DNA of 64,000 nt from Chitinophagaceae bacterium (GTDB taxonomy: Bacteria > Bacteroidota > Bacteroidia > Chitinophagales > Chitinophagaceae): the NCBI GenBank assembly GCA_016703625.1, contig JADJBP010000001.1, positions 837,129 to 901,128 on the forward strand, given 5' to 3'. A program made the position numbers and the translations under genes. Shown here piece by piece: positions 10,680-53,050 of this stretch. Positions within the stretch are counted from its first letter, which is position 1, and every line of letters starts with the position of its first letter. Below the pieces are notes generated by a model. It was not told the DNA's origin and did no database searches. It was given only the letters and a program-made list of their open reading frames with translations.

Positions 10680-11108
10680 ATGAAACAGGTAAAAGAAGGT
10701 GATGTTGTAAAAGTACATTACACAGGTAAGTTGGTTAATGGTGAGCAGTTTGATTCTTCAACCGGCAGGGAGCCGCTGGAGTTTACGGTTGGAGCCGGGC
10801 AAATGATCAAAGGATTTGATGATGCGATGCCGGGAATGAGTTTGGGTGAAAAGAAAACGATCAATATTGCAGCCGAAAATGCATATGGTGAAAGAAGTGA
10901 AGAGGCGATCATTGAGTTCCCGAAAGAAAATGTACCTGCCGATATGGTACTGGAACCCGGAATGCCGCTGACCTTAAGCAACCAGGCAGGACAGCCCGTA
11001 CCCGTAATTGTGGTGGAAGTAAAAGAAGAAGTGATCATTTTGGATGCCAATCATTTCCTGGCAGGACAGGAATTGATATTTGATATTGAACTGGTAGAGA
11101 TTTTGTGA
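10680..11108 (+). CDS. FKBP-type peptidyl-prolyl cis-trans isomerase (SlyD-like)
   Basis: MKQVKEGDVVKVHYTGKLVNGEQFDSS...LEFTVGAGQMIKGFDDAMPGMSLGEKK has the FKBP fold pattern, with an inserted flap region. ATG 10680 is preferred over the upstream TTG at 10632. Confidence 0.8.
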   Translation: MKQVKEGDVVKVHYTGKLVNGEQFDSSTGREPLEFTVGAGQMIKGFDDAMPGMSLGEKKTINIAAENAYGERSEEAIIEFPKENVPADMVLEPGMPLTLSNQAGQPVPVIVVEVKEEVIILDANHFLAGQELIFDIELVEIL

Positions 11109-11190
11109 GTCGAGAGTCGAGAGTCAAGAGTCAGGAGTCAGGAGTTGGGAGTTTGAGCAATTTTAAACTCCCAATTCCTAATTCCTAATT
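11107..11190. repeat. Tandem heptamer array (GAGTCNN x7), then a 10-bp hairpin and a CCTAATT repeat
   Basis: gagtcga gagtcga gagtcaa gagtcag gagtcag gagttgg gagtttg (11107..11155). The stem ttgggagttt / aaactcccaa follows, then ttcctaattcctaatt. It sits between convergent genes and overlaps both stop codons. Confidence 0.85.
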
Positions 11191-11740
11191 ACTTCTGCCC
11201 ATACCACCAACCCAGCCAGATACCGGCCAATCCCCACCCGGCAATACTATCGATCAGTTCCCCGGTTAGCACATCCCAGCCAATACTCATCCAGTTGTGG
11301 CCCATATACCAAACAGATAAAAAACTGATTAAGCCAAAAGTAAGCGTAGTAGTGAATACATTATAAAACCGCCGGTCAGTCATTTTCCCGATCACCAGGC
11401 AGCACAGCCACATGCAGACCAGGCAGATGAGAAATGCCCGAATGATAGGCATTACCATATCTATTTTATGGGCTTTGTGGTAATTGATCACAGCCCAGGG
11501 CTTGCCTTCATTCTTCTTCATGAATTCTTCCATTTCACTGTGCGGGGTGCCAACCGGCATATTGGGTAACAAATACTGGCCTTCTTCAGTTAGGCTGTTG
11601 CTGAGAACACTTAGTATACTGTCTTGGGCAGTTGTATGTTTCATGGCTTTTTCGTGAATTCCCATTACCATCCACGATGCAGCTTGCCAGCCAAATAGTA
11701 ATATGGCCCCAACCAGTGAACCAATGATGATTTTTTTCAT
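11189..11740 (-). CDS. Integral membrane protein of unknown function
   Basis: 183-aa ORF with about 4 hydrophobic segments (IIIGSLVGAILLFGW, MPIIRAFLICLVCMWLCCLVIG, ...). No recognisable catalytic motif. Confidence 0.5.
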   Translation of the reverse strand: MKKIIIGSLVGAILLFGWQAASWMVMGIHEKAMKHTTAQDSILSVLSNSLTEEGQYLLPNMPVGTPHSEMEEFMKKNEGKPWAVINYHKAHKIDMVMPIIRAFLICLVCMWLCCLVIGKMTDRRFYNVFTTTLTFGLISFLSVWYMGHNWMSIGWDVLTGELIDSIAGWGLAGIWLGWWYGQK

Positions 11741-11918
11741 ATTGAATGTTTTAGGTTGTGAAAAATAGAAACTTTGTTTTTAAAATGCAAGTGTTTGTTT
11801 TTGGCAAAGGGAAAAAAAGGAGAAATAGAGTTGTGCGTTAGTATACTGTACTATTTTCCTTCTTTTTATCCTTTGACCTCTTAGCCTATTTTAGTTAAGT
11901 TTGTAATAAATTGAAAAC

Positions 11919-13170
11919 ATGATCCAGATCAGCCCCGATAATATTGCCGACCGTTTTATGCGTTATGTACAGATCGATACGCAGAGTGACCCAACCAGTA
12001 CAGCACATCCTACAACTGAAAAGCAGAAAGACCTGGCTAAATTGTTGCTGAAAGAATTGTACGGTATGGGTATAACAGATGCCGGCACCGATGAGTTTGG
12101 ATATGTGTATGCAACTATTCCTTCCAACAGTGATAAAAAAAATATTCCGGTCATTTGTTTTTGCGCCCATGTGGATACAGCGCCTGATTGCAGCGGTACA
12201 AATGTAAAGCCCATACTGCACCGCTATTATGATGGTAAAGATATTGTATTGCCTGATGATCCGTCGCAGGTATTGCGGATGAGTGATTCGCCTTATTTGA
12301 AAAATCATATCAACAGCGGTGTGATCACCACCAGCGGAACCACTTTACTGGGAGCTGATGATAAAAGCGGGTGTGGCGGCTATTATGGAAGCTGCTTTAT
12401 TTTTTGTGCAGAACCCGGCGATAAAACATGGGGCAATTAAAATTTTATTTACACCTGATGAGGAAGTAGGCCAGGGTACTGTCAAAGTGGACATGAAAAA
12501 ACTGGGAGCCAATTTTGGTTATACCCTGGATGGCGGTGAAGCAGGAAGCCTGGAAGATGAAACCTTCAGCGCCGATGGTGCATTAATAACCATCAACGGT
12601 GTTATTACTCATCCCGGTTATGCCAAAGACAAACTGGTAAATGCATTGAAAGTTGCAGGTGCTGTGCTGGATGCTTTACCAAAAACAGCATGGAGCCCGG
12701 AAACAACAGAAAAAAGAGAAGGTTTTGTGCACCCTACATCGGTTAATGGGATTGCTGAAAAAGCAACCATACAATTTATTGTAAGGGATTTTACATTGGC
12801 CGGGTTACAACAGCATCATGAACGCCTGGAAAAAATAGCGGCAGAAACGGTTGCAAAATTCCCCGGGGCTGTAATGGAATATGTTTTACAGGAACAGTAC
12901 CGCAACATGAAAGAAGTACTGGACAAATACCCCCAGGTTGCCGCATATGCCGAAGAAGCCATACAGCGTGCAGGGTTAACCGTTAAAAAGGAAAGTATCC
13001 GTGGGGGAACCGATGGCAGCCGCTTCAGTTATATCGGGATGCCCTGCCCCAATATTTTTACCGGTATGCAGAATATACACAGCAAATTGGAATGGATCGG
13101 AACAAAGGATATGGCCAAAGCGGCAGAAACGATTGTGCACCTGGCGATGATCTGGGAGGAGAAGAGTTGA
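11919..13170 (+). pseudogene. pepT: Peptidase T (tripeptide aminopeptidase), frame broken in an A4 run
   Basis: ORF 11919..12440 (RFMRYVQIDTQSDPTS...LLGADDK) and ORF 12358..13170 (AGVAAIMEA...FTPDEEVG...) together form PepT. Dropping one A of 12363..12366 gives GADDKAGVAAIMEA. Confidence 0.85.
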
Positions 13171-13180
13171 TCACCGGTAG

Positions 13181-52500: not shown

Positions 52501-52850
52501 TGATCTATAAGATAGAAGCCTTCGGTGCTTTTAAGCAAATGGATGACCAGGTGAATAAGGATATTGTAAGTTTCCTTTGCCATGCGCAGATACCGATGGA
52601 GCAAACCAATGCCGGGCAGATCCGTGAAGGAAGGGAGCGCAAAACAGATATGAGCAGGATGCGCCAGCGTAAGGAAGAATTTGCCGGAGCCGGTGGACCC
52701 GAACACCTGAGTGCAGAAAATGATTATATAGATCCGTCATCGCAAATAAAACAGGAACCCATACGCGTAGAAAAAGCGCCGGGTAGAAATGATCTTTGTC
52801 CCTGCGGCAGCGGCAAAAAGTATAAGCATTGCCATGGCAAGGATGTGTAA
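49521..52850 (+). CDS. secA: Preprotein translocase ATPase SecA
   Basis: [10 protein letters not shown] (Walker A), [50 protein letters not shown] and the C-terminal zinc site [14 protein letters not shown]. Confidence 0.97.
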   Translation: [1109 protein letters not shown]

Positions 52851-52872
52851 AAGTTAAAGGATAAAAAAATAT

Positions 52873-52905
52873 AACCGTCTGCTTTTTAGCATGGCGGTTT
52901 TTTTT
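52873..52905 (+). terminator. Candidate intrinsic terminator after secA
   Basis: aaccgtc ... ggcggtt forms a 7-bp stem including one G-T pair, followed by T8. Confidence 0.55.
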
Positions 52906-52929
52906 ATACTATTTGTTTTTGTAATTAAA

Positions 52930-53050
52930 GTCATTGGTCATTGAGTTATTAAGTCATTGGTCATTAAGTCATTGGTCATTAAGTTATTAAGTCAATGGTT
53001 AAATTCTTTTCAAAAAGGATTTATTATAATGACTAATGACTTAATGACTT
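52930..53050. repeat. GTCATTR(A) 7-8-mer array with inverted AATGACT array
   Basis: gtcattg gtcattga gttattaa gtcattg gtcattaa gtcattg gtcattaa gttattaa gtcaatg gttaa ... ataatgac taatgac ttaatgac t. It abuts the nhaA stop. Confidence 0.85.

Follow-up and report, generated by a model that had tools for sequence, protein, structure and literature searches.

Tandem heptamers, the short tandemly repeated repetitive (STRR) sequences, have been known in heterocystous cyanobacteria since about 1990 and serve strain fingerprinting. Heptamers also occur in rRNA intervening sequences (IVS): the 23S IVS of Coxiella, which has been characterized as a selfish element and contains an S23p open reading frame (ORF), has an inverted-repeat stem that is cut by RNase III, and two or three tandem GACAGAT heptamers, variable between strains, lie upstream of the S23p ORF, the RNase III site falling at the first repeat (PMC4990558). 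In Beggiatoaceae, Cyanobacteria and five Bacteroidetes, TAACTGA repeats adjoin start codons; they form 169 direct sets and 1 indirect set, have been interpreted as the site of a translational regulator, and share their spacers with other heptamer arrays in Gramella, Aequorivita and Elizabethkingia (MacGregor 2015, PMC4679880). The P6b stem of the Nostoc tRNA-Leu(UAA) group I intron likewise has arms composed of 7-nt motifs, TDNGATT or NNTGAGT (PMC4476775). Here we analyze a stretch of 64,000 nt (G+C ~0.42) from contig JADJBP010000001.1 of a Chitinophagaceae bacterium, referred to as the window and numbered from its first letter, in which tandem arrays of 7-8-nt units, in part paired with an inverted copy, lie at the boundaries of protein-coding genes.

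We read these arrays, with a probability of about 0.55, as the arms of IVS-like palindromic modules that have slippage-prone 7-8-nt stems and mostly no gene. On this reading, the window would hold modules in three states: a full cassette (39052-39566), an arm with its inverse (sites 1, 6, 7 and 8, numbered as in Table 1), and a single arm (sites 2, 3 and 4). As in the 23S IVS of Leptospira, Coxiella burnetii and Xanthomonas (PMC4990558), a small ORF for a four-helix-bundle protein stands between inverted repeats that make a long stem. The tandem, strain-variable heptamers at the 5' end recall the IVS of Coxiella, the inverted heptamer arrays flanking the ORF recall that of Azospirillum described below, and the sporadic distribution and decay-prone ORF are features of 23S IVS as well. 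Unlike those elements, however, the modules of the window lie between protein-coding genes, outside helices 9, 25 and 45 of 23S rRNA; most have no ORF, and in one case the 3' array is translated, forming a linker to the gene that follows. The window gave no match to any Rfam family, hence has no rRNA, and none of its modules occupies helix 9, 25 or 45.

The other described repeats resemble the arrays in different respects. STRR and the repeats with 5-11-nt units of Mrazek 2007 (as cited in PMC4679880) share with them tandem heptamers, several unit families per genome, an intergenic position, length variation of the slippage type and a distribution over scattered phyla that include Cyanobacteria and Bacteroidota. 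The descriptions that could be found treat direct arrays and mention neither an array with its inverse nor a link to genes of the four-helix-bundle family PF05635. The TAACTGA repeats also stand a few nucleotides from start or stop codons and are missing from the matching spacers of close relatives (PMC4679880), but the study that described them followed a single unit, nearly always in direct orientation, whereas the window and its related loci have many units, about half of the arrays with an inverse arm. The Nostoc P6b stem shares variation by whole units and the repeated replacement of one repeat class by another in place; unlike the modules of the window, it is located inside an intron and has no associated ORF (PMC4476775). 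Copy number above chance, preference for non-coding DNA and polymorphism of unit number between strains were all found, as in the heptanucleotide class of simple repeats (long simple sequence repeats, LSSR, and STRR). In our judgment, the arrays belong to this known class, and their architecture and their tie to an IVS-type cassette within protein-coding operons are new.

Arrays of 7-8-nt units at gene boundaries

Arrays were called with Tandem Repeats Finder (at least 3 copies) and compared with 40 dinucleotide-preserving shuffles. A sequence-only reading of the window had proposed that arrays of period 7-8 are concentrated at gene boundaries, at eight strong sites that share one architecture and use different units. 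All eight are present where it placed them. Period 7-8 accounts for 13 rows in the window against a shuffle mean of 0.25, no array of period 4-6 was called there, and 10 of the 11 merged arrays lie outside ORFs (binomial P = 3e-8), the intergenic share of the window being 14% (ORFs 86%) on a crude ORF map. The preference extends to a wider set of 2.35 Mb, comprising the window and 160 related loci (mostly metagenome contigs, given L-numbers below), in which 208 of 269 arrays are intergenic and intergenic DNA makes up 10%. Within 843 kb of relatives around metagenome homologues of gene 41745-42743, period 7 dominates (166 arrays), followed by periods 8 (50), 9 (39) and 6 (16), with at most 11 arrays for each remaining period; arrays of the period-7 type also occur in scattered other Bacteroidota. 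Across the window and the 160 loci, an inverse partner lies no more than 120 nt away for 47% of the 258 arrays whose flanks are complete, compared with ~4% in shuffled controls, and about half of the arrays in the wider set are solo.

The same reading had described the arrays as usually followed by their inverse. This stands for sites 1, 6, 7 and 8, where the inverse is adjacent and long hairpins are predicted on both strands (z = -3.1 to -7.9); it does not for site 5, whose inverse is 420 nt away, or for the solo sites 2, 3 and 4. The contact of arrays with start and stop codons was borne out: sites 1, 3 and 8 touch stop codons, site 4 comes within 5 nt of a start codon, and site 6 includes a stop codon. 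Clusters of the GTTAAT unit were found at all four loci for which they had been named, and the common architecture with differing units is supported. Six weaker sites fared unevenly: two are short solo arrays (49289-49313 and 56720-56750), two are plain hairpins (11805-11875 and 55140-55200), one is a duplication (35930-35990), and at 21660-21715 no array or hairpin was seen.

A small gene between inverted arrays

Site 5 is the one module of the window that holds an ORF, and it has both the PF05635 ORF and the terminal inverted repeats of an IVS. In gene-sense order, the stop codon of an aldehyde dehydrogenase (ALDH) gene is followed by the (GTTTCTN) array, the small gene, the (AACGAGA) array and a RidA-like ORF. 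The small gene matches Pfam PF05635 (E = 1.4e-29) and NCBIfam TIGR02436 (E = 1.7e-27), and the closest solved structures of its product are 2GSC and 2RLD, both deposited with five chains. Aligned over 45 positions, the two arms, ~420 nt apart, are in agreement at 37. A TATAATTTG-like motif in the stretch from the 5' array to the small gene does not match the consensus TAnnTTTG exactly, and we make no claim for it.

The association of this gene family with inverted arrays is general among the related loci. An iterative search of all of them yielded 27 further or orthologous PF05635 genes, 21 of which are preceded by an array and followed by its inverse, with a period of 7 in nearly every case; equally complementary flanks were found for 29 of 1716 control genes (1.7%). 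Within a genome, the units vary from junction to junction; a given junction has similar units in different genomes, and a change in one arm is matched in the other, as in the pairs GTTTCTC/GAGAAAC, GTTTGGC/GCCAAAC, CTGGTTG/CAACCAG, ATTTACC/GGTAAAT and GGTTGAA/TTCAACC. A literature search, in which subscription journals were thinly covered and which is therefore not proof, found no work that links PF05635 genes generally to inverted heptamer arrays between protein-coding genes.

The arrangement recurs in other phyla. A tblastn search of a plasmid collection located the gene mostly on Nostocales plasmids, and among the 14 regions that were read, 10 have inverted arrays, 2 have arrays in direct orientation and 2 have no pair. 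The arrays are GGGAAAA/CCCTTTT, GGGAACA/TGTTCCC and GCAGGGA/CCCTGCT in Nostoc, GGGTGTA/TACACCC in Calothrix, GGTGACA/TGTCACC in Anabaena 90, GGTTTAA/CCTTAAA in Riemerella and GGGCAGGA/CTCCTGCC in Gemmatirosa; Geminocystis has inverted arrays as well, as does, more weakly, Calothrix PCC 7716. In Azospirillum, inverted heptamer arrays stand on either side of an ORF within the 23S rRNA gene (Rfam LSU match, E = 4e-233), and because of this location the case is a true 23S rRNA IVS. On two cyanobacterial plasmids, L167 (Anabaena sp. 90) and L166 (Pseudanabaena galeata), a four-helix-bundle gene with arrays was observed between cas6 and cas4.

In the window, no stop codon interrupts the frame from the four-helix-bundle ORF across the 3' array to the RidA-like ORF (38649-39499, minus strand), which has no in-frame ATG of its own there. 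The stop-to-stop ORF (849-981 nt) is continuous in 12 of 12 related cassette loci (L084, L086, L094, L101-L103, L108, L111, L116, L122, L128 and L144) despite differing array lengths, which suggests, at the level of sequence, a conserved four-helix-bundle/RidA fusion protein with a repeat-encoded linker (NEKRETK...).

Modules at matching junctions in relatives

At the same junction, the position and architecture of a module persist and its unit sequence turns over. The junction of site 7, between the ATP synthase gamma gene and the next gene, has the GTTTGTG unit also in L082 and L084, arrays of an 8-nt unit (GATTTGNT) in L083, L086 and L088, other hairpins elsewhere, and nothing in L001, L003 and L010; array-free spacers are 6-21 nt long. 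Site 6 lies at the junction of the 3-hydroxyanthranilate dioxygenase (3HAO) and ACMSD genes, which in ~75 loci shows at least 9 unit types, is empty in 6 loci (6-41 nt) and carries a full PF05635 cassette in 9. One of these cassettes, in L142, has arrays of the GGTTAAT type and resembles the gene-less hairpin of the window; a single unit family dominates the whole operon in this locus. At the ALDH|RidA junction (site 5), 6 loci are empty and 13 have the full cassette, and L118 and L119 retain a decayed one, consisting of the arrays and the first 9 codons of the small gene. The junction of site 8 has a counterpart in the Sediminibacterium locus L002, where a full PF05635 cassette follows directly after SecA.

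Whole modules are thus present or absent at precisely one junction, and the sequences of their units drift between lineages, the two arms staying alike. Hairpin modules also have ends in common with full cassettes: at both of their ends, hairpins of the GTTTCTC family agree with full cassettes that sit at a different junction, down to the non-array bases TAAAAGAGCCAATAACGA. A gene-carrying element and its gene-less derivatives would leave such a mixture of full, decayed and empty forms at matching junctions.

A second small cargo was observed at the junction that matches window positions 41673-41744, a GxxExxY / PD-(D/E)XK protein (TIGR04256, PF13366) encoded at 9336-9725 of L085 and 633-1019 of L141 and also in L092, L109, L110, L139, L148 and L154. 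It is bracketed by a conserved inverted repeat, GAACGCAGATTTTTATGATGATTATGA, and in L110, L113 and L120 the ALDH|RidA junction has gene-less hairpins with ends of the GAACGCAGATTTTTATGATGATTATGA type.

Variation between near-identical strains

Activated-sludge and wastewater metagenomes contain DNA near-identical to the window, which allowed comparison with strains whose flanking genes are ~99% identical (Logan contigs of the sequencing runs X1, X2, X3 and X6, and locus L081). Whole units are gained and lost between these strains. Contigs of X2 and X3 span the module at site 1 with a 7-nt gap, which equals one unit; at site 4, X3 has 34 nt extra; and at site 6, L081 (protein 99% identical) has one extra 8-nt unit and X1 has 48 nt more. 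The length at site 2 is identical in X1. At site 7, the entire 64-nt module is missing from X1 and X3, leaving stop-AA-ATG, and no clear target duplication was seen at this 64-nt presence/absence site. Such whole-unit changes between near-identical strains indicate slippage. The specific generating mechanism that the regularity of the arrays had suggested is in this part supported, and the comparison of orthologous spacers that had been recommended shows both unit gain or loss and presence or absence of whole modules. The arrays would have lost their standing had they vanished in an independent assembly; the same arrays are present in the JGI contig L081 and in the Logan contigs of X1-X3 and X6.

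When the window was aligned with all the metagenome strains, many single-base indels were seen (39019; 15904-17614; 43241, 43415, 44356 and 48582; near 41631). The 1-nt difference at 39019 disrupts the RidA-like frame, and the one near 41631, relative to L081, shifts the stop codon of the 3-hydroxyanthranilate dioxygenase into the array, 12 codons further on; the L081 version of this gene ends with a TAA in the first GTTAAT unit. These differences are either assembly errors or pseudogenes. A further difference concerns 22936-24859, where the X1, X2, X3 and X6 strains join 22936-22964 to 24834-24859 variously, with differing letters in between, one strain form omitting 1870 nt; this looks like a strain-variable segment with three small ORFs.

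Sites in the window

The positions, builds and predicted folds of the sites are collected in Table 1.

Table 1. Array sites, cassette parts and weaker hairpins of the window, with predicted folding (z relative to shuffled sequence).
Feature	Position	Strand	Setting and build	Edges and fold
Site 1, hairpin module	11107-11190		between convergent FKBP-type isomerase (+) and 183-aa ORF (-); (GAGTCNN) x6.5 arm, loop, degenerate inverse arm (AATTCCT x3)	begins within TGA 11106-11108, ends at stop codon of convergent gene 11189-11191; -38.7 kcal/mol, z = -5.9 (+ strand); -30.7 kcal/mol, z = -5.8 (- strand)
Site 2, solo array	20327-20386	+	between exbB-like and exbD-like genes; (NNGTTAAT) x7, no inverse partner	fold no better than shuffles (z = -0.2)
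Site 3, short array	27755-27797	-	GTTAATCCGT x2 on - strand; 18-nt period x2.5	directly after stop (27781) of acyl-CoA dehydrogenase gene (27781-28965, - strand); weak fold (z = -1.4)
Site 4, solo array	28971-29058	+	divergent intergenic/promoter region; (GTTAATNN), ~10 copies	starts 5 nt from acyl-CoA dehydrogenase start codon (28965); fold on + strand RNA only (z = -2.5, vs +0.45 on - strand)
Site 5, cassette 5' arm	39521-39566	-	(GTTTCTN) x6, upstream of small gene	5 nt past aldehyde dehydrogenase stop
Site 5, cassette cargo gene	39131-39499	-	four-helix-bundle protein of 23S rRNA IVS family; PF05635, TIGR02436	
Site 5, cassette 3' arm	39052-39101	-	(AACGAGA) x6, inverse of 5' arm	read through into RidA-like ORF
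Site 6, hairpin module	41634-41732		between 3HAO gene and 332-aa gene 41745-42743 ('ACMSD'); GTTAATCCGT(N6) x3 arm, (ATTAACNN) x5 inverse arm	includes stop codon of ORF 41115-41672; -26.5 kcal/mol, z = -3.4
Site 7, hairpin module	44593-44656		between ATP synthase gamma gene and next gene, both - strand; (GTTTGTG) x4.6 arm and its inverse	covers all but 9 nt from start (44592) to stop (44659); z = -3.9 on +, -3.1 on -
Site 8, hairpin module	52930-53050		between convergent SecA and NhaA genes; (GTCATTR) x9 arm, inner small hairpin, (YAATGAC) x3 inverse arm	inverse arm finishes at NhaA stop codon (53050); -40.5 kcal/mol, z = -7.9
Weak solo array	56720-56750	+	(GCAGGGGA) x3.6; Tandem Repeats Finder	no fold (z = 0.16)
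Weak solo array	49289-49313	+	(CTAAACCCT) x2.8, period 9; Tandem Repeats Finder	no fold
Plain hairpin	11805-11875		purine-rich 5' arm, pyrimidine-rich 3' arm, non-tandem	z = -4.5
Plain hairpin	55140-55200		G+C-richer, purine and pyrimidine arms, non-tandem	-33.1 kcal/mol, z = -6.5

The strand-specific fold of site 4 arises because GUUAAU is self-complementary through G-U pairs, so that a direct GTTAAT array folds on the plus strand only. Sites 3 and 4 on either side of the acyl-CoA dehydrogenase gene were considered as the arms of a cassette around it and rejected as such; they look like one GTTAAT unit family populating neighboring spacers. CRISPR-like arrays were likewise dismissed, since the units are contiguous and have no spacers.

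Sites 5 and 6 were observed to lie within an apparent kynurenine-pathway cluster (36014-42743). Matches to Pfam and NCBIfam support its 3-hydroxyanthranilate dioxygenase, FAD monooxygenase, aldehyde dehydrogenase and RidA-like protein, and kynureninase and ACMSD are labels of our own reading, presumed here. The SecA gene (49521-52850) is of the long type and matches NCBIfam NF009536 (PRK12901), which we take to be the Bacteroidota form of SecA; its closest relatives by amino-acid identity are from an uncultured 'Bacteroidetes bacterium' (81%), Sediminibacterium (75%) and Hydrotalea (72%), which by itself marks the source of the window as Chitinophagaceae-like. Look-ups of the exact NhaA and SecA proteins gave no hit, so that the genome of the window is either absent from the collection used or recorded there with differing proteins.

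The weak site at 35930-35990 consists of an 18-nt duplication of GAAGGCCAGGGCAATTCA with a small hairpin at 35944-35980. A similar motif, GGCAGGGCAATTCA, was seen in an intergenic hairpin of L085 at the ALDH|RidA junction, and the two may represent another dispersed repeat family.

Arm polarity, wobble pairs and terminators

The arms of the hairpins differ in composition. The 5' arms have 6% C, 23% G and 41% T and the 3' arms 7% G, 22% C and 40% A, with the same polarity on both strands, and about three quarters of the array hairpins of the window and the related loci obey this rule; in the plasmid and rRNA examples of other phyla, the 5' arms are G-rich too. Such polarity implies that each arm would stay unstructured until it meets its partner, and one might guess that a G-rich, C-poor arm, if synthesized ahead of its partner, would not self-fold or load Rho in the meantime. 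The idea that C-poor 5' arms are selected to hold stop triplets was rejected, the frequency of stops being 0.66 against 0.63 expected from composition.

Ordinary intrinsic terminators had been set aside as the explanation on sequence grounds, and this holds: the stems are AT-rich and mostly have no T-run, a terminator scan of the window reported none of the array hairpins, and site 4 occupies a divergent promoter region. Identity with intrinsic (Rho-independent) terminators is rejected on the same stem composition and scan. Only site 7 has a T4 past its stem, on the plus strand, and its genes are on the minus strand. A putative conventional terminator of SecA, a stem and T8 recognized by eye at 52876-52906, lies upstream of the module at site 8. 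In a combined terminator and promoter scan, counts were near those of shuffles and none fell at arrays, the promoters sought being of the sigma-70 type, which is ill-suited to Bacteroidota.

Origin of the modules

The features that any account must cover are the units, the inverted arms, the small gene and the gene boundaries. An account that we consider unlikely makes the arrays a mutational by-product: replication slips on 7-8-nt units, arrays accumulate in non-coding DNA, inverses arise by template switching at hairpins, and the link to PF05635 is secondary. Whole-unit copy-number changes between strains, the missing wobble signature and the solo state of about half of the arrays agree with it, as does the slippage of polymerase proposed for heptanucleotides, which, according to Mrazek 2007 as cited in PMC4679880, are the commonest 5-11-nt repeats in prokaryotes. 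Slippage leaves unexplained, however, that 21 of 27 PF05635 genes, against 1.7% of controls, stand between inverted arrays 400 nt apart, that the arrangement is repeated across four phyla as well as in a 23S rRNA IVS, that whole modules are lost or gained at a 2-nt junction, and that hairpins and cassette ends have non-repeat bases in common. A somewhat smaller chance is given to functional RNA stem-loops that are selected per se, as bidirectional terminators, stabilizers of 3' ends or intercistronic processing sites, the repeats being a tolerated way of building stems and the small genes passengers of the loops. The strong folds on both strands, the position after stop codons and between convergent genes, the structure kept at matching junctions as unit sequences change and the polarity of the arms (C 6% in 5' arms, G 7% in 3' arms) are what this predicts, but in many close relatives the junction is empty and measures 2-40 nt, so the element is dispensable. 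The absence of a T-run and of any array hairpin from the terminator scan, the apparent separate terminator of SecA upstream of its module, the location of site 4 in a divergent promoter region and the lack of a G-U bias argue in the same direction.

It is quite improbable that the arrays are sites for a protein that reads tandem heptamers (of the cold-shock, S1, CsrA or four-helix-bundle type) and regulates translation or transcription of the neighboring genes, as proposed for the TAACTGA repeats of Beggiatoaceae, even though the arrays of sites 4, 5 and 7 lie a few nucleotides from start codons, the GTTAAT family occupies four loci of the window and one family dominates the operon of L142, and such regulators have been put forward (MacGregor 2015, PMC4679880). 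At least 5 unrelated units in 64 kb and more than 9 unit types at one junction in relatives speak against it, and the genes served have nothing in common; a single sequence-specific DNA-binding protein is rejected, given the number of unit types. As for an artefact of assembly or sequencing, its probability is close to nil. The many 1-nt indels relative to four metagenome strains do show that the base-level accuracy of the window is imperfect, yet the same arrays recur in independent short-read assemblies, in a JGI contig and in dozens of related loci, which already refutes this explanation.

Identity with known intergenic palindromes was considered as well. Like miniature inverted-repeat elements and REP/REPIN sequences, the modules are short intergenic palindromes that far outnumber their gene-carrying form and are present or absent at precise junctions. 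Unlike those elements, the copies of the modules diverge; a clear target-site duplication was not seen, and no transposase is known to go with them. REP/REPIN identity was rejected, since units vary by site and since the REP-associated tyrosine transposase genes observed in L122 (9830-10351) and L128 (12532-13053) have G+C-rich inverted REPs (GCCGTTGGTCAAAGACCA...) on either side that bear no relation to the heptamer arrays.

Our preferred reading, that of IVS-like modules with slippage-prone stems, would work as follows. The number of units would change by replication slippage, and hairpins would derive from cassettes by internal deletion, unless hairpins come first and the small genes move into their loops. 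Modules would fill junctions that measure 2-40 nt in the empty state, and would be unable to spread into coding sequence, which would explain why arrays abut start and stop codons. In transcripts, the arms may pair into stems of 20-45 bp that, by analogy with the Coxiella IVS, could be cut by RNase III or could protect 3' ends.

Several observations weigh against this reading. Where the arms mismatch, G-U wobble pairs are not in excess on the sense strand (19 vs 21, with 102 transversions); selection for RNA pairing is therefore unsupported, and the arms could owe their continuing similarity to a process acting on DNA. The 3' array forms an in-frame linker in 12 of 12 ALDH|RidA loci, which makes obligatory RNase III cleavage there hard to reconcile with its translation. 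Many of the 27 PF05635 genes are orthologues at 3-4 junctions, so that the independent cases number nearer 15-18. For sites 1 and 7, full cassettes were not seen in any relative, gene-less hairpins are far more numerous than cassettes, and change may run either from hairpin to cassette or from cassette to hairpin. The RNA data, from three runs of metatranscriptomes and a fourth of unknown type, yielded only a few short contigs of the organism and no readable transcript ends. We know of no mobility enzyme for the modules, and the reading accounts neither for the 7-nt unit length nor for the arm polarity.

A bolder proposal, to which we would give rather low odds, is that PF05635 genes, joined in Bacteroidota by those for GxxExxY / PD-(D/E)XK proteins, are the cargo of one widespread class of selfish 'gene in a stem-loop' that colonizes rRNA helices and protein-gene junctions alike, and whose stems and relics make up much of the heptamer-repeat DNA (STRR and others) of Cyanobacteria and Bacteroidota. 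The arrays would then be made or homogenized by an active process tied to the element, for example an Avd-like four-helix-bundle protein acting with a reverse transcriptase or a template-switching polymerase, and not by passive slippage alone.

Implications

The phenomenon is widespread, extending over Bacteroidota, Cyanobacteria and other phyla. Its modules disrupt short-read assemblies, and they lengthen or fuse ORFs, as with the 12 codons added to the 3-hydroxyanthranilate dioxygenase in the window and the fusion of the four-helix-bundle and RidA-like ORFs. Since they vary among strains that are 99% identical, they are useful markers as well as a source of annotation errors. If heptamer repeats and IVS are one kind of module, the repeats would derive from small inserted cassettes, as the ends of these or of what is left of them, and their position at gene boundaries would be explained by the occupation of 2-40-nt junctions.

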